Positions 17,009 to 52,871 of a stretch of DNA of 64,000 nucleotides are shown here, piece after piece. How positions within the stretch are numbered: the stretch's first letter is position 1; each line of letters starts with the position of its first letter. Origin of the DNA: a virus; the IMG/VR virus record IMGVR_UViG_3300022538_000472, positions 35,139 through 99,138 of that record; one strand, given 5' to 3'. The position numbers and the translations under genes were made by a program. The notes under the pieces are model-generated. The model had not been told where the DNA came from and did not search any database. It saw nothing but the letters and a program-made list of their open reading frames with translations.

Positions 17009-17248
17009 CTACAAAGTCCTCTCAAACTCCCTCACATTCTCATCATAGAAACTTGGATCCTCCCCATTCTCCTGGTCAAGATACTTCTTGGCAAACGCAA
17101 GAAGAACCCGTCCAAGAATTCTTTCATCCATCGTAAAAACAGATGTCACTATCTCCCGACCCTGATGAAGGAAATATTGACGGAGTATTTGTAACCGGGA
17201 TTCCAGATACTTCAGTTCAGACAATTCCAAACTTACTAATGCTTCCAC
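17009..17248 (-). CDS. Hypothetical protein, paralog of 24005-24247
   Basis: Shares MEALVSLxLSELKxLESR...ILGxVLLAFxKKYLD with the 24-kb ORF. Confidence 0.75.
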   Translation of the reverse strand: MEALVSLELSELKYLESRLQILRQYFLHQGREIVTSVFTMDERILGRVLLAFAKKYLDQENGEDPSFYDENVREFERTL

Positions 17249-22881: not shown

Positions 22882-23408
22882 TTTTTCACTGCCTCACAGA
22901 CGATATCACCGTTCGGTCTATACTCAATACCTTTATTCTGCCTGGTCTTGGTCACTTCACACTGTACAATTCTAAACCCAAACCGAGGAAGGATGCGCCG
23001 AAGCCGTTCTACTGAAAAGCCAGTGCGGGTGAGGAAGCCGGGGCCACCAGTCTGGTGTCCGAAGATATTCAGCAGGCCCCAAGCGCCCTTACCGCTGCCG
23101 TCCTTGCCGTAGCGATAGTCGTCGCCACGCTCGACAAACTCACGGGCATAGATCTCGAAATTGGGACAGCGGATGACCAGCTTGCCGCCGGGCTTTAGGA
23201 CTCTGTGCCATTCGCGCAGTGCTGCCTCAAACTCGTGTGGCGGAAGGTGCTCGACCATGTGGGAGGAGAATACTTCCTCTATGCTGTTATTGGCGTACAT
23301 TGGGAGTTCGTGCGCCGCTGCTTTTACGTCAGCTTTTGATTCGTACTTATCCACTGAGACATAGCCAGGCTTGCGAACTACGCCGCTTCCGATGTTGAGT
23401 TTGGTCAT
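22878..23408 (-). CDS. Class I SAM methyltransferase (type 11)
   Basis: LNIGSG, SSHMVEHL and EWHRVLKPGG. Confidence 0.85.
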   Translation of the reverse strand: MTKLNIGSGVVRKPGYVSVDKYESKADVKAAAHELPMYANNSIEEVFSSHMVEHLPPHEFEAALREWHRVLKPGGKLVIRCPNFEIYAREFVERGDDYRYGKDGSGKGAWGLLNIFGHQTGGPGFLTRTGFSVERLRRILPRFGFRIVQCEVTKTRQNKGIEYRPNGDIVCEAVKK

Positions 23409-23411
23409 TGT

Positions 23412-24011
23412 CTAACTCCATTGGTCCTCCACATACTTCCTGGCCTCCCTCCTCATGTGACCAGGAATTCTTACACCTGAAGCTATATATCCAATGAAGT
23501 TGGTGGCTTTCTCCGCTGGGTAAATGTTGACAGGTCCAGCAACGTAACCTAGAACAGATATATTTCTGGCAGTTATTTCCTCGTCCCCATTCTCGTAAAC
23601 ACACACCAGACACACCTCGGTCAAGGCAAATGCCACAAGGGGTTCGACGCGAGCATATCTACGATCATCTTCGTGATACTCGGCATATACAGACTGCCAA
23701 CCACTGGCCGGAATCATACTCAGTGGCTTGTAGGTTCTGTCAAAACGACTTACCTTTGTGGGAATTCCCTTTCGTTCACTCTTGGCATAATCATCGTATA
23801 CTCTTGCAGTGATATAATAATCCAAGATGTCCTTATTCATGTCAATATCTATTCGTAGCGGAAATCCAGCATCGAGACTAACTTCCTTAAAGACATAATA
23901 AGCTAGATCCGTAAAGAGTTTCGCGAAACTCTGCTCGAATCGCTGTCTGCCCTCATCTACAGAACAGGCAGTGTCAAAGTTCTCTTGACGTACAACTATG
24001 GGTTTCACCAT
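23412..24011 (-). CDS. Hypothetical protein
   Basis: 199-aa ORF coupled to its neighbours. Confidence 0.55.
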   Translation of the reverse strand: MVKPIVVRQENFDTACSVDEGRQRFEQSFAKLFTDLAYYVFKEVSLDAGFPLRIDIDMNKDILDYYITARVYDDYAKSERKGIPTKVSRFDRTYKPLSMIPASGWQSVYAEYHEDDRRYARVEPLVAFALTEVCLVCVYENGDEEITARNISVLGYVAGPVNIYPAEKATNFIGYIASGVRIPGHMRREARKYVEDQWS

Positions 24012-24247
24012 GGTGCCTCCTCATTGAACACTTCCTCATCCAGCGCCAAGAAACTTGGTTCTTTCTCTTTCTCCCAATCAAGATACTTTTTGAAGAATGC
24101 AAGGAGAACCTCTCCAAGAATCTCTTCCTCTATCGTAAAAGCAGGCGGAACCAATCTCTTACAGTGGAGAAAGCTCTGACGAAGCGACCGCATCCGAGAT
24201 TCTAGCCACTTCAGTTCGGACAATTTTAGACTTACTAATGCTTCCAC
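24005..24247 (-). CDS. Hypothetical protein, paralog of 17009-17248
   Basis: Clear similarity to the 17-kb ORF. AAGGAGG RBS. Confidence 0.75.
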   Translation of the reverse strand: MEALVSLKLSELKWLESRMRSLRQSFLHCKRLVPPAFTIEEEILGEVLLAFFKKYLDWEKEKEPSFLALDEEVFNEEAPW

Positions 24248-24324
24248 TTTACCTCCTTATAATGGGCTTGAATTAACAAGCCTCCACCTACCACGGCTAT
24301 CGAGTTACTTATGGCCAAGTTAAC

Positions 24325-24423
24325 GGCGCGGGGCTGGATTTGAACCAGCCTCTTTTACCCCATACCTGGGAATCGAACCCAGTGGTAAATGAGCTCATCT
24401 ACCAGTGCCCAGACGCCCGCGCC
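24325..24423 (-). ncRNA. Double-T-loop structured RNA, copy 1
   Basis: 8-bp closing stem GGCGCGGG/CCCGCGCC, a 22-nt hairpin, CTGGG-TTCGATT-CCCAG, linker GTATGGGGTAAAAGAG, and GCTGG-TTCAAAT-CCAGC. Architecture is identical to 38893-38991. Confidence 0.75.
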
Positions 24424-24435
24424 ATGTTGGATATT

Positions 24436-24507
24436 TGATTCGTACTTATCCACTGAGACGTAGCCGGGCTTGCGGACTATGCCGCTGCCGATGTTTAGTT
24501 TGGCCAT
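24436..24507 (-). pseudogene. Duplicated 5' fragment of the methyltransferase at 22878-23408
   Basis: MAKLNIGSGIVRKPGYVSVDKYES versus MTKLNIGSGVVRKPGYVSVDKYES (22/24 aa). Homology stops about 12 nt before the ncRNA. Confidence 0.8.
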
Positions 24508-34555: not shown

Positions 34556-36022
34556 CTAGGTGATCAGACCACCAGCTCCTTGACCCCAAATCGCATACGA
34601 ACTCCTAGCAGGCGGTGGTCCGCTGGATCCCCCGTCTAAGAAATAATCGCTCGCGGGGAATGGGCTTCTCAGGTGCTGTTGTGGCGTATAGGCGACGTGG
34701 TCAATGCGACCGGCGAGTTGTGGTGCTCTCAGGATGATACGCTGCTCGGTCAGGAGACCCAGCAGGTAGCACCACAACTGCCCGTCGTAAGCCCAACTGA
34801 AGATTCCATTGTCGCTCCAGAAGTCGGGGCGACGCATGTTCATGAAGGGCTTGATATTGGCCTGTGCCACAGACGAGCGGTAGTCAAGGTATTCGCGGTA
34901 GGTGACGGGGAAGTTGCCTAAGACAGTCAAAGGCACAAAGTAAACGGTGGACGCGAATTGACCTTGGACAAGATTGGCGTTGTTGGCGGCGTCGTGCTCG
35001 AAGATACCGTCGTCGATTACGACCGGGTAGTTGACGCCGTTGATGGGCAGGTACATACCGTCGCGCAGTTTATCGCGCAGGTTGACGTTAGACTCGTCGT
35101 TGATGATGCCAACCTGCGTTCCTGCGAAGTCCTGGCAGCGGTTGGTCAGATAGCGGCATGGCCAGCATGCGCTGAGCTCATACCAGAGGTTGGCAGTCAT
35201 TGCGATGACCCACTTGACCGGCTTGAGTTTCATCTTGCGTGCATTGTAGTCCAGATACCATGCCATCATGGACATGTACTCCACAATGTCATTGACTGTA
35301 CCGCAGACATCGGCGTAGTTGAAGTCTTTCACGTCGGAATCGAGGGCCGGGCAGAGGACGCCAGGTCGGTCGGCATCTACTTGTCCGGTTGCGATTTGGA
35401 CGTCAAGACCGGGGAACTCATTGACTACAGCGGTCGTTCCCTGCCAGTACTGGTGGGTCAACTCGCGCTGCATCTGGACGCCAGCGACGAGCATCTCGGA
35501 CAGTGTGACAACGTTCAGAAGATCGCCACCGGTCAGATTAGCGGGGACGAGTCCCATGGCCGCCTGGTCGTTGCCCAGCAAACTGCCGAGCAACTGCAAG
35601 TCCATGAAGTCGCCACGGTTGAGACGCGTGATGACTTTGTTGAACTCGATGGTGTTGGTATCGAAGCGTAGTTGCCCGAAGCGAGCGGTGAGATTACAGC
35701 CTTTCAAGTAAGCGTGAGGCGCGGCCTCGCACTTATTCTCAGGCTGGTGGCCATAACTGCCCGTGATGCCAGTGATGGTAGCATAGCGCGGATCAGTGTC
35801 CATTGATGGGTTGATTGGAAGAACAGAAGCGATGCCTTCGGGCTGGACGTGTGCGGTTAGAATCTCGCGATTCAGGCCGAAGGTGCTGAAGATTCCACCG
35901 GGGCCGTGCAAGGTAAAGCCGGTTCCAGTGTGGGCGTAAGCGCCTTTCTTGTCGGTGCCGAGTCCCTTGACCGCGTCGGCCAAGTTGCTAAGCACCTGGA
36001 TTTGTTCTTGTGACAGTTTCAT
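34556..36022 (-). CDS. Major capsid protein
   Basis: 488 aa directly downstream of the protease/scaffold, with a strong GGAGG RBS and a terminator after it. EFPGLD.QI.TG..D motif. Confidence 0.75.
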   Translation of the reverse strand: MKLSQEQIQVLSNLADAVKGLGTDKKGAYAHTGTGFTLHGPGGIFSTFGLNREILTAHVQPEGIASVLPINPSMDTDPRYATITGITGSYGHQPENKCEAAPHAYLKGCNLTARFGQLRFDTNTIEFNKVITRLNRGDFMDLQLLGSLLGNDQAAMGLVPANLTGGDLLNVVTLSEMLVAGVQMQRELTHQYWQGTTAVVNEFPGLDVQIATGQVDADRPGVLCPALDSDVKDFNYADVCGTVNDIVEYMSMMAWYLDYNARKMKLKPVKWVIAMTANLWYELSACWPCRYLTNRCQDFAGTQVGIINDESNVNLRDKLRDGMYLPINGVNYPVVIDDGIFEHDAANNANLVQGQFASTVYFVPLTVLGNFPVTYREYLDYRSSVAQANIKPFMNMRRPDFWSDNGIFSWAYDGQLWCYLLGLLTEQRIILRAPQLAGRIDHVAYTPQQHLRSPFPASDYFLDGGSSGPPPARSSYAIWGQGAGGLIT

Positions 36023-36024
36023 GG

Positions 36025-38811
36025 TTAGTTACCTCCTACTGCTGATTGATCCGTTTCACCGATGAAGGCGTCTACGAAGGGGATGCCAGTGATGGCATCA
36101 GCGAGGGATGCTGTTTCCTCGGGGCCAGACTTGGCCAGTTCGGAGTCGGCCTTCACGAAGGTCGCCTTACTGCCAATGACAGACTGGAGTAAGGAACTCA
36201 GAGAAGCGGCGGGAGTCTCGGCGGCCTTCTCGGCGACTTTGACGTCGTCGGCCTCTTTGAGCGACTTGACTTCGGCCACTAGCGGCTTGAGTGCCTCGGT
36301 GATTTCAGCCACGACTGTCTCAGTAGTCTCCTTGATTTCACCTCGGAGCACTTCGACCATAGCCTTCATCGCGTCGGCCACCTCCTCACGGGTGAGGACG
36401 TTGACCTCTGGCTTTGGCTCTACTGCCTTCTCTGCCTCTACCTTGGTTGTGGTCTCAGCATCTTCCTTCCTGCCAGATGCCGTTGCCATTTCCTCGGCAA
36501 TGGCGGAGAGTTTCTCGCCAGCGTCGCCACCGACTTTGCCTGCCAGCATGCGGAGTTGGCCCGCCAGTGATGCCACGTCGGTCTTCGCCTTCTCGGCTTC
36601 GTCGGTCTTCATCTTCTCGGCTGTCGGAATTGCTTTCTCCAACTTGGTGCAGAAGACCTCGACTTGGCCCTTTAGGCCCTCATCTTCGATGGACTCGGCG
36701 ATTTCCTTGATGCGTGCTACGTAGTTACCGCCAGCCTTTTCATCTTCGGGTGGGGCTTCCTTGAAGTCAACCTCACCCTCCAGTCTTTTGGTGCTTTCCT
36801 CACCGACTTTCACGATGGAGTCAACTAATTCCTGACCACCAACAATCATGAAAGCCTTGCGTTGCTGCTCGTTCATTTGTTTTACCTCCTGGAGTATCTG
36901 TGGCATTGGACTATATGGATTGGACGCATAGCGAGCCGGAAGAACCGTGCTCTCATTTATGTCAAACCAGTTATATACACCGTCTACTGCGCGATCCGTT
37001 GACTTGTAGGAATACTTGTGGGAGGTTCCCCAACCTTCGGGTGCGATGTCGGGATGCGAGTGTGGATGTGCGGAGAAGAACTCCTTGAACGCTCGTCCAA
37101 TTGTCGTGTCGTCGAATGGCCCAGCTTGGGCCAGAAAGCGGCCCACCATAGCCTGTAATCGGACAGTGCCGAACTTAGAGCCTGGCGTATGCCAGAACCA
37201 GAATTCCCCCTTGATGTCGTCGTTCTCTTTGCGGTCTACGAAGTCGCTGATTGATTGAGTAGTGAATATCTCGCCTTCTCTGTCCTTGAAGGCGTTGGTG
37301 GTCCATTGGAACCACCAGGTAGTGCCATCTAGTGCTTTAAATGCGAAGGCGGTTGAGCCTTGGTCGAGGGCCTTTTTGCCTGCGATTGACAGAAGTGTGC
37401 CAAGGTCGAATTCGTCCGAGTCAGTGTCATCGTTGTCGTTGTCGTTCGGCTTGTCGTCGTAGGTGGCCCACCCTATGAACTCACCGAGGGAGACAAGGAA
37501 TTCATTTAGTTCATCCTTGAGTTTCTGGAGGAGGCCGACTTTATCTTGGCGGACGCGGCGGCCTTCCTTCTCACCCTCGGCTTTTATTGCTGTACCCACG
37601 CCAGATGCGACCGCCGCAGTAACGGCGCGACCTGCCTGAACACCGGCTGCTTCAACTTCGGCCTGGGTTGCGTCCTTCATCATTCCATCGCATTCCTCGC
37701 ACTCGATCTCAGCGCAGGGAGCATCATCCTTGCGCTCAGTGACGTGATTGCATTTCTCACAGATGCAATAGTCGCTGCGTACCTTTTTGCTCTCAGCAAG
37801 TAACTCCTGTGCCTTTTTACGCAGTCTCTCTACAGTGGCAGCAGGGAACCGTTTGCCTTCTTTGTCCTTCATCTGGGACATACGAGCCAGTGCATTGCGG
37901 AGGTGACCTAAGTCTATCTCGCCATCTTTGCCGCGCACAGGAAGGTGGCGAAGGGAAAGCGGGCGTGTGATGTCATCCTTCTTCTCACCGCCAGATTCAA
38001 TGAGCAAGAATGCGGTGTCAGGAAGTTTACCGATATACGCGCCCGACCACTTCGCCTTGTCACCGGTCTTGGCTCGCTTCACCCATGCATCTCCCTCAAT
38101 TTCGTAGAGTTCCTTGAATTGCGCGATAGCAGCGCCCCAGGGTGACTCGGGGCCGTCCTCGGCGGCTTCCATTGCGTCGGCCCAACTAGCCACTAGGTTT
38201 GCCTGTGTCAAGTCAATTGGCGGCTTGATTCCCCTAAGCGCAGGATTCGCCTCACTTAGTTTGCCGTACACCTTTTCGCCTTCCAATTCCACTTGCTCAT
38301 CGTCTAGCAGAACTGTGATCTCCTGCATGTCAGTAGTCTCCTTTGTTCCCTCTACCTCTGGCTCTGGTTGCGCCTTGTCAGCCATGTCAGCGGTCGCAGG
38401 ACTGCCAGGGTCTACACTTGGACGCACTACGCTTGACATAACCGTCTGGACGCCAGCGGGAACGTCTACAGCCAATGGCTCAGCGTACTCCTTGAACCCC
38501 TCAATAGGGTACTCCCATAATGTCTCATATTCGGGCCACCAGCGCATCCGGTCAACCCGACTCACTCGATGCCTTGATTCCTTCGTGTCAAAGTCTTCCA
38601 GCGACCTTTCTACTGGCTCTCCCAGTGTCATATCCCCCAAGCCCAATCCAACCCCGTCCACCTTCGACACCAGCATCCAGTCGCCGCGCAGGTCGAACAG
38701 CTTGTGACCAGGGACATACTTTGACTTGACAATAGCAGACTTCGCGCCGGTTGCAATCAACTCACCGTGGGGGGGAACTAAGTATAGACCTCTGGTTTGC
38801 TTAAGACTCAT
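36025..38811 (-). CDS. Multidomain prohead protease/scaffold protein
   Basis: Protease-like core (TTNAFKDREGEIF...FWFWHTPG) and an acidic Ala/Glu/Lys scaffold tail. Extra N-terminal modules include a CxxC Zn finger and a ChaB-like helix pair. Likely start is ATG 38811. Confidence 0.7.
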   Translation of the reverse strand: MSLKQTRGLYLVPPHGELIATGAKSAIVKSKYVPGHKLFDLRGDWMLVSKVDGVGLGLGDMTLGEPVERSLEDFDTKESRHRVSRVDRMRWWPEYETLWEYPIEGFKEYAEPLAVDVPAGVQTVMSSVVRPSVDPGSPATADMADKAQPEPEVEGTKETTDMQEITVLLDDEQVELEGEKVYGKLSEANPALRGIKPPIDLTQANLVASWADAMEAAEDGPESPWGAAIAQFKELYEIEGDAWVKRAKTGDKAKWSGAYIGKLPDTAFLLIESGGEKKDDITRPLSLRHLPVRGKDGEIDLGHLRNALARMSQMKDKEGKRFPAATVERLRKKAQELLAESKKVRSDYCICEKCNHVTERKDDAPCAEIECEECDGMMKDATQAEVEAAGVQAGRAVTAAVASGVGTAIKAEGEKEGRRVRQDKVGLLQKLKDELNEFLVSLGEFIGWATYDDKPNDNDNDDTDSDEFDLGTLLSIAGKKALDQGSTAFAFKALDGTTWWFQWTTNAFKDREGEIFTTQSISDFVDRKENDDIKGEFWFWHTPGSKFGTVRLQAMVGRFLAQAGPFDDTTIGRAFKEFFSAHPHSHPDIAPEGWGTSHKYSYKSTDRAVDGVYNWFDINESTVLPARYASNPYSPMPQILQEVKQMNEQQRKAFMIVGGQELVDSIVKVGEESTKRLEGEVDFKEAPPEDEKAGGNYVARIKEIAESIEDEGLKGQVEVFCTKLEKAIPTAEKMKTDEAEKAKTDVASLAGQLRMLAGKVGGDAGEKLSAIAEEMATASGRKEDAETTTKVEAEKAVEPKPEVNVLTREEVADAMKAMVEVLRGEIKETTETVVAEITEALKPLVAEVKSLKEADDVKVAEKAAETPAASLSSLLQSVIGSKATFVKADSELAKSGPEETASLADAITGIPFVDAFIGETDQSAVGGN

Positions 38812-38830
38812 CTCTGTATGTCCATAACGC

Positions 38831-38858
38831 AAAAACCGGGAGCACAATGGCTCCCGGT
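38831..38858 (-). terminator. Intrinsic terminator downstream of the ncRNA
   Basis: ACCGGGAGC/GCTCCCGGT stem followed by TTTTT on the minus strand. Confidence 0.75.
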
Positions 38859-38888
38859 CTGAAGCAATTCTATTAGATTATTCTATTT

Positions 38889-38994
38889 TGGTCTGACAGG
38901 ACGGGAGTTGAACCCGTCTCTTTTGTCCCGTACCTCAGAGTTGAACTGAGCCGAAGGCAGTACTACCTTCGGGTTCCGCAACGCCTGCCAGACC
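38889..38994 (-). ncRNA. Double-T-loop tRNA-like structured RNA, copy 2
   Basis: Closing stem GGTCTGGCAGG/CCTGTCAGACC ending ...ACCA, a 22-nt hairpin, CTCAG-TTCAACT-CTGAG, linker GTACGGGACAAAAGAG, and ACGGG-TTCAACT-CCCGT. Has its own promoter and terminator. Confidence 0.85.
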
Positions 38995-39005
38995 TCTATA
39001 TTGCC

Positions 39006-39034
39006 AGTATACTATAACTCCAATCTTATGTCAA
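39006..39034 (-). promoter_or_regulatory. sigma70 promoter for the ncRNA
   Basis: TTGACA-17 nt-TATACT, 11 nt upstream of the RNA stem. Confidence 0.85.
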
Positions 39035-50394: not shown

Positions 50395-52116
50395 TCATCT
50401 CCTCATCATTACTACACCAACGCTGCCCCCCGCCATCAGCGACCCACTCGCCGCCACGTTCTCGTAGTTCTCAGCGTGCGCATAGTGGTCAGCGCCAGTC
50501 TCGACGTACCGCGCCACACTCTCGCCACTACGAGGTCTCTCCACTACTCGCACTGATGCCTGCATCTGCTTATAATACTCTGATACCGTCTTTATGTCAA
50601 GCGGAAGCGTGCGAGTGCTGGCATAGACTTGGGCAAACATTTCATCCAGGGTGCGCGTCCGGTCGAGGTTCACTACGCCTTCACTAATGTTAGGTTCAAT
50701 TGGTTTGAGCTTCTTGGAGCCGGTGCGCTGGGTAGAGTAGTAGGCCAGCCAGACCACGCCAAGGGGGAAGGCTGATTGCAGTTCACGCGCCTTGCGAGTT
50801 TCGGGCAGAGCGTCGATGACGCACGTCTTGACTTTGAACTTGGTGAGGACTGTAGCCAGTTCATCGAAGGTTGCAACGCCAGCAGCGTAGCGTAGTGGCC
50901 GTTCGCCAGACTCAGTATCGGCTGGGCCTCGGATGATCACATTGAGCACTGAGCCAACGTCCACGCCAGCGGTTGTGAGTTCGTCCGACTTGGGGCCTAG
51001 TCCGTAGTCTCTAATGCAGGCATCAAGTACTTCACTAGTCAACTTGCCACCGCGTGGGATGTAGGGCAATCCCAGGTCCTGATTGAATGCCTCCTTGCGA
51101 ACCGTCTCATCCACGGTACTCAGCGCCTCAACGATGGCCAGCAGATCAACCACTGGAGAGAACAGCCGCGTGAGGTGAAAGCCAATCACCTTAACGCCTA
51201 GTCTGGCTGCAACCCACTCGCCCTGCGCCAGGTGATTTAACTCCCTGCCACACTTTCGACATGCAGTCCATGCGCGGTTCTCTTGCCGGCCATGCCAAGC
51301 AGCGGGTCGCTCCAGTTCATCCCACTCGGTCACTATCGAATCAATAGTGAGCGGCTGCCGCTCGCCACAGCGCCAGCATCGGACGTGCCATTCGCGCTGA
51401 TCACTGAGTTGCCAGGCGGCGTGAATGCCAAGGTCGTGGTAGGTGGGAGTGGAGACTAAGCGCACCTCGGCAATCCTGGAAGCGCCGAGCCTCTTCTCTG
51501 CAATGGTAGGAGCACGGCGGTCCATTTCGTCCACTTCGTCGAGGATGAGAACATCGGCATCCACGGCCTTGAGTTGAGGTGCACTGCCATCGGGTGCGAC
51601 CTTGCCACCGCGCAGATAGAGAAAGCGATTGCGAACTCGCTTGAGAGTGGTTCGGTCAGCGCCTTTGCCGTGGGCGGGGACTACGATGGAGGTGAGATAG
51701 TCAGAGGCAGCGATAGCAGGCCCAATGCGGCCAGCAGAGAAGTCACGAAGGTGAACGTCAGTGGGGAATACATAGAGGACGGTGGCTTGGCGTTGGTCGG
51801 CGGCGTGGAAGGCGTAGGAGATGAGATACTCAGAAGCGCCCATTTGGCTGGCTTTGTAGATGACCAGGCGCTTGGCGTTGGCGGTGTAGATGTCGGTGAG
51901 GTAGGAATGCGCGGTGAAGTCGACTGGCTTGTCGGGGCCAAGTAGAGGGCGCTTGGATTGTGTCCAGGCCAGGAGTGATAATTGGTTAGGTCGTTCCCTC
52001 AGCCGTCTTTTGGCTTCCTGCCACACTTCCGACATCAGGCTGTCCATTGCCTGTGGCGACAGCGACAGTTTCGACGGCCTCTTGGACGAGTCTTTCAAAA
52101 GCGGCTGCAGGGTCAA
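50395..52116 (-). CDS. terL: Terminase large subunit (lambda GpA family)
   Basis: YKASQMGASE (Walker A variant), ILDEVD (Walker B), STPT, CWRCG Zn knuckle, and nuclease AGVDVG...VIDALPE...DHYAHA. Alternative start at 52047. Confidence 0.93.
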   Translation of the reverse strand: MTLQPLLKDSSKRPSKLSLSPQAMDSLMSEVWQEAKRRLRERPNQLSLLAWTQSKRPLLGPDKPVDFTAHSYLTDIYTANAKRLVIYKASQMGASEYLISYAFHAADQRQATVLYVFPTDVHLRDFSAGRIGPAIAASDYLTSIVVPAHGKGADRTTLKRVRNRFLYLRGGKVAPDGSAPQLKAVDADVLILDEVDEMDRRAPTIAEKRLGASRIAEVRLVSTPTYHDLGIHAAWQLSDQREWHVRCWRCGERQPLTIDSIVTEWDELERPAAWHGRQENRAWTACRKCGRELNHLAQGEWVAARLGVKVIGFHLTRLFSPVVDLLAIVEALSTVDETVRKEAFNQDLGLPYIPRGGKLTSEVLDACIRDYGLGPKSDELTTAGVDVGSVLNVIIRGPADTESGERPLRYAAGVATFDELATVLTKFKVKTCVIDALPETRKARELQSAFPLGVVWLAYYSTQRTGSKKLKPIEPNISEGVVNLDRTRTLDEMFAQVYASTRTLPLDIKTVSEYYKQMQASVRVVERPRSGESVARYVETGADHYAHAENYENVAASGSLMAGGSVGVVMMRR

Positions 52117-52576
52117 AGCCTGCCTCCCGTGTTTCCCTGCGCCAGTCTACAATGACATGGCGCTCAATGAACAGCCCAAAGTGCTTAGCAAGAGTCTCTA
52201 ACGCCCGCTGAGCGTCATAGAATTCAACCTGCTTGCCATACTTGGTTTCCTTGATGGACTTGACAAGGAACCCCTGACTATCAGCGAGCAGATTAGCAAA
52301 GTCAACAGTTGCATCTTCTTTGAGGTATCTACTGTAGTCACTGCGAGCAATGGCGGCCAGTCGAGCCAGGACTTCATTAGCAGTCATCGCTGACTCGTTG
52401 AGGCGTATCTTAACCAGAGCCTGAATCTTAGGATTTCTTACTAACTCATACCCCCGGACAGCAAGCGAGTTATCATCGCCTGCATAGCCTGCTCGTTCGG
52501 CTGCACGGGTGGCGTTGAAATCTTGGAGGTATTCCTCAACAAATCGCGCTTGTTTGCCAGTTAGTTGACTGCCCAT
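51986..52576 (-). CDS. terS: Terminase small subunit
   Basis: LTGKQARFVEEYLQDFNATRAAERAGY signature. Likely start is ATG 52576. Confidence 0.9.
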   Translation of the reverse strand: MGSQLTGKQARFVEEYLQDFNATRAAERAGYAGDDNSLAVRGYELVRNPKIQALVKIRLNESAMTANEVLARLAAIARSDYSRYLKEDATVDFANLLADSQGFLVKSIKETKYGKQVEFYDAQRALETLAKHFGLFIERHVIVDWRRETREAGFDPAAAFERLVQEAVETVAVATGNGQPDVGSVAGSQKTAEGTT

Positions 52577-52781
52577 TGGCTTGAGTTTGGTTGCCTGCGG
52601 AGTTTGGGCGGGGGGCTCCGCAGGCAACCCAGAGAAAAGGAGGAGCGCAAGAGATGCAGATGCGCCTCGCACCGCTCCTGGGTGCGGCTATTATGTTAAG
52701 TTAGACAGCCAAGTGAGATGAGGTCTCAGCAAGCCACTTGGTAACTGAGTAGCCCTCCCAGCTGCCTTGCACTTGGTACAG

Positions 52782-52871
52782 TAGCGGGGCCAGGAATCGA
52801 ACCTGGGTCTCCGGATTAGACCTGGTGTCTCTGGATTAGTGCCCGGCTTGACGCCACTCCACTACCCCGCA
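52782..52871 (-). tRNA. tRNA-like gene with duplicated anticodon arm (possible CTA anticodon; possibly a pseudogene)
   Basis: Acceptor GCGGGG/CCCCGC and T arm CCAGG-TTCGATT-CCTGG. The anticodon region has two imperfect ~20-nt copies (CCGGGCACTAATCCAGAGAC and CCAGGTCTAATCCGGAGAC). No CCA encoded at the canonical position. Confidence 0.55.

Follow-up and report, generated by a model that had tools for sequence, protein, structure and literature searches.

A candidate non-decoding tRNA-like RNA with two T arms in the head-gene leader of a marine-sediment phage

Introduction

Stable RNAs C and D of phage T4 are small RNAs of unassigned function that are associated and processed with tRNA genes, and the late-gene leaders of lambdoid phages carry tRNA genes, for example ileZ-argN-argO in 933W. 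Phage tRNA genes are increasingly viewed as a means of countering the tRNA-cutting or tRNA-modifying enzymes of the host; non-decoding look-alikes have been far less explored. The YrlA-type Y RNAs of bacteria and phages (RF02553) are non-decoding and contain a tRNA-mimicking module that includes a T arm; their acceptor-like stem is closed by a loop, and their terminal stem binds Ro60 (PMC4201824). Here we describe a tRNA-like RNA of approximately 100-106 nt, encoded on the minus strand at 38994-38889 of a 64,000-nt stretch (the window; positions 35,139 to 99,138 of IMG/VR record IMGVR_UViG_3300022538_000472) from a phage in a marine-sediment metagenome.

This element, referred to as copy 1, has a paralogue within the window (copy 2) and an orthologue in a related phage contig (L024). 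Comparative sequence evidence marks it as the gene of a real structured RNA whose fold is kept by purifying selection, and which belongs to an uncatalogued, narrowly distributed RNA family. With a confidence that comes close to an even balance without reaching it, we favour the reading that the product is a non-decoding tRNA mimic, which would be cut out by tRNA-processing enzymes and act in trans, possibly as a homodimer.

Architecture of copy 1

The following features, all on the minus strand, make up copy 1.

38889-38994, minus strand: copy 1, consisting of GGU, the 8-bp stem, the internal arms, the return strand of the stem and ACCA (sequence reading, fold and alignment)
38984-38991, minus strand: closing (acceptor-like) stem, 5' strand, which pairs with 38893-38900
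38973-38983, minus strand: linker 1, 11 nt, CGUUGCGGAAC, with the pattern CGU...GG.AC (invariant positions in the alignment)
38951-38972, minus strand: hairpin 1, 9-bp stem with a 4-nt loop (five compensatory pairs)
38934-38950, minus strand: hairpin 2, 5-bp stem with the 7-nt loop UUCAACU, closed by G-C (two compensatory pairs)
38918-38933, minus strand: linker 2, 16 nt, GUACGGGACAAAAGAG in copy 1, consensus GUAYGGGRYAAAAGAG (alignment)
38901-38917, minus strand: hairpin 3, a T arm of 5 bp (perhaps 6) with the loop UUCAACU (two compensatory pairs)

The predicted fold is unusually stable, with a minimum free energy z-score of -4.35 for copy 1 alone and -4.78 when the terminator downstream is included; none of 200 shuffled sequences was as stable. 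RNAalifold, applied to the three sequences, agrees with the four main helices. The architecture is one of five helices, in which the closing stem and its T arm are accompanied by a GG-bearing segment in the D region, a palindromic hairpin and a second T arm. A first-pass annotation, made from the sequence alone, had described a TTGACA-17-TATACT promoter, a closing stem of 8-11 bp, an 11-nt linker, T-loop hairpins, a 16-nt linker and an intrinsic terminator, and all of these are present where it had placed them. Its description of a tRNA-like acceptor/T half, combined with non-canonical D and anticodon regions, is likewise borne out by the layout of the arms.

The two ends of the RNA pair with each other, GGU and CUGGCAGG on the 5' side with CCUGUCAG and ACC on the 3' side, followed by a single A. 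The pairing of GGU (38992-38994) with ACC (38890-38892) extends the stem outwards from 8 bp to 11 bp. Copy 2, too, has two of the pairs that lie beyond the 8-bp stem, with G-C changed to A-U and U-A to U-G, and the terminal stem is therefore probably 10-11 bp long rather than 8. Within the 8-bp stem, four of the eight pairs show a compensatory change in the alignment of the copies. Its innermost pair is broken in the orthologue; an invariant G-C could instead make the T stem 6 bp, which is a better fit. The 8-bp acceptor stem with a CCA end proposed in the first-pass annotation is consequently uncertain: copy 1 does encode ACCA, but ACC is engaged with GGU, the innermost pair does not hold in the orthologue and copy 2 encodes no CCA.

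Hairpin 3 is continuous through its 3' strand with the closing stem, in the fashion of a tRNA, and the combination of a 5-bp stem, a UUCRANY loop and continuity with the 3' strand of the acceptor is found in all three sequences. One position of this hairpin has three pair types among them (G-C, A-U and U-A). Hairpin 2 directly abuts hairpin 1 and occupies the position of an anticodon or variable arm. It carries the full T-arm signature, and is a second T arm rather than an anticodon arm. The T-loop consensus UUCRANY with a G-C closing pair is present in both 7-nt loops of both paralogues, despite divergence of the stems.

Of the two linkers, linker 2 is purine-rich, predicted to be unpaired and invariant at 13 of 16 positions across the three sequences. 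Linker 1 may form a mini hairpin of 2-3 bp with the invariant GG in its loop, recalling a reduced D arm; RNAalifold pairs G13-C22 and U14-A21 here, and there is no covariation at these positions.

Hairpin 1, called near-palindromic in the first-pass annotation, is in fact fully so: all 22 nt are self-complementary through the centre, and the loop reads GUAC in copy 1 and AGCU in copy 2. The hairpin-1 loops of both independent lineages are Watson-Crick palindromes, for which the chance is 1/16 each. In ViennaRNA calculations, a homodimer formed through hairpin 1 is about 16 kcal/mol more stable than two monomers for each copy, with a 22-bp intermolecular duplex; a heterodimer of copy 1 and copy 2 shows no gain. 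The homodimer is a computed possibility and not evidence of dimers.

Paralogue, orthologue and covariation

Copy 2 lies at the following position.

24321-24426, minus strand: copy 2 (paralogue), with its core at 24423-24325

The segment lengths of copy 2 are identical to those of copy 1 (8+11+22+17+16+17+8), and the two align without gaps over 106 columns at 77 % identity. All of the 32 proposed pairs form in both copies, and 13 of them have changes on both sides. When the 3' partners were moved by 1-3 columns as a slid control, 0-2 double changes were left. A covariance model built from the two window copies (R1), as the first-pass annotation had suggested, matches the 109.6-kb phage genome in exactly two places, at 120 and 118 bits. 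It also finds one orthologue (106 bits) in L024, a metagenomic contig of 110 kb from a related phage, at L024:4847-4952, and the covariation proved real. The orthologue adds a compensatory change from G-C to A-U in the T stem and a G-C/G-U swap in the closing stem. Over the three sequences, 99 % of the 32 pairs form and 13 show compensatory double changes, compared with 0-3 in the slid controls. In addition, sequencing run X4, from an independent study, yielded an RNA-bearing contig with the same paired T-stem change as the orthologue.

A U directly precedes the 8-bp stem in all three sequences, and a U at position -1 is the preferred context of bacterial RNase P. The stem is followed by A in copy 1 and by G in copy 2.

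Relation to known RNA families

A search of the whole window against Rfam 15 gave nothing at the gathering score, in keeping with the first-pass statement that the family was not recognised. In permissive mode the best match was the selenocysteine tRNA, tRNA-Sec, whose threshold is 47 bits; copy 1 scored 16.9 bits and copy 2 scored 20.4 bits, and the similarity was limited to the tRNA clan. R1 in turn matches ordinary tRNAs weakly, which confirms that the acceptor/T half is tRNA-like. ARAGORN at its default settings missed copy 1 and called copy 2 as tRNA-Ser(cga) with a mismatched acceptor stem; at a relaxed threshold it called copy 1 as tRNA-Leu(caa), among about 100 other calls. Both the Rfam and the ARAGORN search had been proposed in the first-pass annotation. 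ARAGORN misreads hairpin 2 as an anticodon arm, with CAA in copy 1 (relaxed mode) and CGA in copy 2, and these apparent anticodons arise because the UUCRA of a T-loop spells them when it is read as an anticodon.

Judged by U33 and a purine at position 37, no arm qualifies as an anticodon arm. Hairpin 2, the sole candidate with a 7-nt loop, has C or U at position 37, and hairpin 1 is unfit because of its 4-nt loop, so that neither copy has a plausible anticodon. The place of the D arm is taken by the 11-nt segment of linker 1, inside an acceptor-like stem of 8-11 bp. Of the properties of tRNA-Sec, an 8+5 stack is possible; UCA and a variable-arm hairpin are both lacking. The standard ARAGORN search of the genome found no tmRNA, and no tmRNA family of Rfam matched at E values up to 10. 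The phage genome was also found to lack an SmpB gene, a CCA-adding enzyme and a Ro60 (TROVE) domain; the last of these searches gave matches in control genomes. The RNA falls short of the defining features of tRNA, tRNA-Sec, tmRNA and Y RNA; what it has in common with all of them is the acceptor/T minihelix. The pyrimidine at position 37, the T-loop in place of an anticodon loop and the want of a canonical D arm suggest that the RNA does not decode.

An alternative is that the two copies are aberrant but working class-II-like tRNAs, tRNA-Leu(CAA) for copy 1 and tRNA-Ser(CGA) for copy 2, chargeable by LeuRS and SerRS. Both enzymes ignore the anticodon, and in bacteria the discriminator base is A73 for Leu and G73 for Ser. 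The A after the stem with CAA in copy 1, and the G with CGA in copy 2, match these rules; the ARAGORN calls are of Leu and Ser type, the 8+5 stack occurs in tRNA-Sec, which is the weak Rfam match, and the phage is without an ordinary tRNA set. The T-loop consensus alone, however, forces CAA or CGA, and both copies have a pyrimidine at position 37. A canonical D stem is missing, 11 nt stand where a 2-nt connector is usual, the 16-nt 'variable region' is unpaired and the scores are far under the tRNA thresholds. Neither codon concerned is favoured in the phage, UUG making up 18 % of Leu codons and UCG, the rarest Ser codon, 12 % of Ser codons. We regard working tRNAs as distinctly improbable. 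The related idea that the copies supply these codons was rejected, as UUG and UCG are not enriched in the phage.

Elsewhere in the window, a tRNA lies at 52782-52871 on the minus strand (RF00005, 36.5 bits against a threshold of 29), which was detected only in the permissive Rfam mode and missed by the filtered gathering run. A 26-nt stretch, in which CUAAUCC occurs twice, replaces its 7-nt anticodon loop, and ARAGORN calls it tRNA-Pyl(cta). Its sequence would suit an amber suppressor with an intron or an expanded loop. It is followed by a near-threshold match to the DUF3800-VI RNA motif (52706-52764, minus strand; 33.1 bits against 35) and then by a small terminase gene (51986-52672, minus strand).

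Insertion of copy 1 into an existing leader

Copy 1 lies in the leader of a head gene, between the following signals.

39006-39034, minus strand: sigma-70-type promoter TTGACA-17-TATACT, with 11 of 12 consensus matches
38861-38888, minus strand: A/U-rich spacer of 26-28 nt with AUAGAAU-type repeats, also present in the RNA-less relatives
about 38828-38860, minus strand: intrinsic terminator, an 11-bp hairpin and a U run (fold; stem pairing kept in all five phages)

The RNA begins about 11 nt past the promoter, within a few bases of the predicted transcription start. About 17 nt beyond the terminator is the ATG, at 38811, of a 928-aa head-morphogenesis gene. Some distant relatives of the 928-aa protein carry prohead-protease domains, and the next gene, of 488 aa, is labelled as a capsid gene; together these indicate a head-gene block. 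The terminator was not listed by a consensus scan, and we suspect that it was missed since its stem absorbs part of the U run.

Four related contigs (L024 to L027) were reached through homologues of the 928-aa protein. The metagenome-assembled genome to which L026 was binned bears the label Chloroflexota, which gives a hint, from binning only, of a likely host. In L025, L026 and L027 (74-78 % protein identity), a TTGAC-17-TATACT-type promoter, the spacer and the terminator are all kept ahead of the 928-aa orthologue; the tRNA-like RNA is absent from these three leaders, both by alignment and by R1. The alignment shows a clean insertion of about 109-112 nt in the window phage and in L024, right after the -10 box and between two ATARC repeats. 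TTGAC and most positions of the -10 box are invariant in the five phages, and the sequence of the terminator stem changes in the four relatives while its pairing is kept. As three relatives keep the promoter and terminator without the RNA, copy 1 is best explained as an insertion into an existing short transcription unit. The first-pass annotation credited the RNA with its own promoter and terminator. These signals are real, but they are not the RNA's own: on this comparison they belong to the landing site and not to the RNA family, and copy 2 has neither.

The leader therefore has two alleles, with the RNA in two related phages and without it in three. Both alleles occur in run X4, in which an RNA-less contig that skips from 38874 to 39025 co-occurs with the RNA-bearing contig, at a depth of 14.9 against 3.4. 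The phages thus supply natural controls, since sister phages share the promoter, terminator and head genes without the RNA and both alleles are found in one environmental sample.

To judge from its sequence, the ancestral unit looks like a strong promoter closely trailed by a terminator ahead of late genes, and the late promoter of phage lambda, with its short terminated transcript, resembles it. All five phages have this arrangement directly ahead of the head gene, with a promoter, about 35 nt of A/U-rich spacer and a terminator (L025:2385-2495, L026:2284-2385, L027:3570-3670, and 38828-38888 plus 39006-39034 in the window). The RNA-free leader may be a lambda-like late promoter in need of antitermination, or may give rise to a small RNA of about 75 nt.

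A structured domain directly upstream of an intrinsic terminator in a 5' leader would also suit a cis-regulatory, riboswitch- or attenuator-like element, in which the domain would respond to a ligand or protein and so control the terminator that lies 26 nt downstream. The two parts occur separately, however, as copy 2 has no terminator and the relatives have the terminator without the domain, and no alternative pairing between domain and terminator is conserved. The motif CAGACC, shared by the 3' end of the RNA and the terminator in the window, is absent from the orthologue. Attenuation was rejected and is, in our estimate, extremely improbable.

Other insertions are found nearby in the relatives. 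In L024, an insertion between terminator and head gene (L024:5034-6004), just downstream of the RNA orthologue, encodes an ADP-ribosyltransferase of 203 aa (PF03496, E 2e-18) and contains a 120-aa ORF. Two orthologues of the 928-aa protein (P0003, L025:2469-5837; P0005, L027:3683-7540) are enlarged internally by 200-350 aa, and the inserted part gives weak or faint matches to PF13563, the 2H phosphoesterase / 2'-5' RNA ligase family.

Context of copy 2

Copy 2 is situated inside an operon, with neither a promoter nor a terminator nearby. Ahead of it is a duplicated piece of a methyltransferase gene, 24 codons long and with 22 of 24 residues identical, and after it come ORFs of 80 and 199 aa. 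The duplication, which comprises the first 24 codons of that gene (92 % identical; a 72-nt target duplication), flanks copy 2 and both ORFs, and the whole lies at 23337-24507. At the orthologous glycosyltransferase-methyltransferase junction the whole cassette is absent, and the junction is undisrupted in four relatives. Acquisition of the cassette by an illegitimate crossover together with a homologous one would fit these junction sequences. A paralogue of the 80-aa ORF, at 17009-17248, has no RNA beside it, and the ORF is therefore not an obligate partner of the RNA.

The positions of the two copies also bear on whether the fold is simply a cis-acting processing or stability module, which recruits RNase P, RNase Z or RNase E, or stabilizes a 5' end, and whose excised RNA is functionless. 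Copy 2 lies in an operon right after the dead 24-codon fragment and before the ribosome-binding site of the next ORF, copy 1 is at the extreme 5' end of the head-gene leader, and its 3' flank and terminator would be released like the 3' external spacer of a tRNA. Cleavage, however, needs the acceptor/T minihelix alone, and the second T arm, the palindromic arm and 27 nt of linkers are conserved too. Moreover, relatives without the RNA express the same head genes from the same leader. We consider such a module unlikely, though it is the main rival of the trans-acting mimic. The 11-nt and 16-nt linkers have been kept while the helices diverged by 13 double changes, which exceeds what a cleavage signal needs and argues for a role in trans over that of a mere processing site.

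The same loci could be taken as the record of a selfish or passenger cassette that aids its own spread, or came with recombined DNA, and does nothing for the phage. The precise presence/absence polymorphism at the leader, the very narrow distribution and the arrival of the second copy with two ORFs and a 72-nt target duplication would all be expected of such a cassette. No recombinase, reverse transcriptase or nuclease travels with the RNA, however, and the 13 compensatory changes between the paralogues indicate long purifying selection on the fold in both copies. A functionless passenger seems to us very unlikely. The distribution of the RNA is accessory and swappable at the sequence level, as with phage tRNAs.

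Distribution

Database-wide searches for the distribution of the family used exact patterns, which sets a limit on the range that they can reveal. When IMG/VR was scanned for an exact pattern with two UUCAACU T-loops, 20 loci emerged, mostly resembling coding repeats, with a few tRNA-like ones of another layout; the best R1 matches among the 20 were ordinary tRNAs or a tandem repeat. Three linker/T-loop patterns had no matches in IMG/VR, four chance matches in the JGI metagenomes and 26 chance matches in 185,000 prokaryote genomes, all of which were rejected by R1. A BLAST search of GenBank phages with the locus gave no match. R1 found nothing in 32 IMG/VR relatives identified through the capsid protein (39-54 % identity), whether whole records or fetched loci were searched, or in more distant relatives of the 928-aa protein. 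Within the limits of exact patterns, the family appears to be confined to a narrow phage clade.

Other tRNA-like elements with a double UUCAACU occur on unrelated IMG/VR contigs (L014:5745-5838, L005:4559-4614 and L015:11203-11279, all minus strand), and their layouts differ from that of the copy 1/copy 2 family. Those of L014 and L005 are not called by ARAGORN, and that of L015 is called as tRNA-Leu(caa). The fold of the L014 element is a cloverleaf that has a GG-loop hairpin and, within its 'anticodon' loop, a T-loop-like sequence; the L015 element has two tandem, identical T-arm repeats inside a closing stem.

Proposed role

If the RNA is a trans-acting tRNA mimic, copy 1 would be transcribed at a high level from the near-consensus promoter of the head leader, ending at the leader terminator, and copy 2 as part of its operon. 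The U before the 8-bp stem in all three sequences, and the ACCA encoded in copy 1, suggest that host enzymes acting on tRNA ends (RNase P, 3' trimming, CCA addition) probably excise the tRNA-like module. The excised RNA would then present one or two tRNA elbows to a factor, of the host or the phage, that recognizes T arms or elbows; it could, for example, serve as a decoy or sponge for an enzyme that targets tRNA, and it may act as a homodimer that pairs through its palindromic arm. Two full T arms and two conserved linkers have been kept and the anticodon discarded, which points to the job of being recognized as a tRNA rather than that of reading codons.

A more specific proposal is that this is a new class of phage RNA, a self-dimerizing tRNA mimic with two T arms, which traps a host factor recognizing T arms or elbows, such as a defence enzyme that cleaves or modifies tRNA. 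The paralogues would then be two dimers that do not cross-pair and that differ in the identity of their acceptor ends (A versus G after the stem). We put this forward as speculation that is unlikely to hold in full.

Several observations weigh against the trans-acting mimic. In copy 1 the ACC of ACCA is engaged by GGU in a stem that seems to measure 10-11 bp; together with a T stem of 5-6 bp this would give a stack of 15-16 bp, longer than the 12-13 bp that tRNA enzymes measure. Nor is there an evident partner protein: Ro60, SmpB and a CCA-adding enzyme are all missing from the phage, the neighbouring ORFs are without recognizable domains and are not consistently linked to the RNA, and Pfam, PHROGs and a protein atlas returned nothing for the neighbours of 85, 80, 199, 313 and 928 aa. 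The three sequences represent only two independent lineages, too few for covariation to bear on the linkers and the outer stem. The great rarity of the family would suit an element that is recent or dispensable. A search for the uncultured phage placed it in its source sample only and returned no RNA runs. Genes of this kind are easily overlooked, as standard finders miss them (Rfam) or mislabel them as tRNA-Ser or tRNA-Leu (ARAGORN).

Comparison with known systems

RNAs C and D of phage T4 can be likened to the present RNA by description only, as small phage RNAs of unassigned function.

The closest match in sequence, tRNA-Sec (RF01852), can be considered together with the long-stem allo-tRNAs; in these, too, the closing stem runs into a 5-bp T arm with a canonical T-loop. 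An 8+5 stack is possible in the present RNA, its length is close to the 100 nt of tRNA-Sec, and its long stem with a 4-nt loop sits where tRNA-Sec has a D arm of 6 bp with a 4-nt loop. Unlike tRNA-Sec, it has no UCA or other credible anticodon, its 'anticodon arm' being a second T arm; its connector is 11 nt rather than 2 nt, a variable-arm hairpin is lacking and its stem probably exceeds 8 bp.

The tRNA-like domain of tmRNA shares with the present RNA an acceptor stem and T arm, a (nearly) stemless, GG-containing analogue of the D-loop and an RNA body that emerges at the position of the anticodon stem. The present RNA differs in having no tag reading frame, no pseudoknots and no G3-U70 pair. 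As in the Y RNAs, a non-decoding RNA found in phages carries a tRNA-mimicking module with a T arm. Here, however, the terminal stem is itself the acceptor-like stem, the order of the arms is different and there is no match to the Rfam family.

The tRNAs of lambdoid late-gene leaders provide a parallel in genomic position. An R1 search of an Escherichia coli O157 Sakai chromosome, which was not confirmed to carry a leader RNA of the kind sought, gave no match, and the phage group and habitat are different. In both cases, a swappable RNA cassette is placed just after a late promoter and ahead of structural or lysis genes; in the present phage, the extra element of that cassette is a second T arm.

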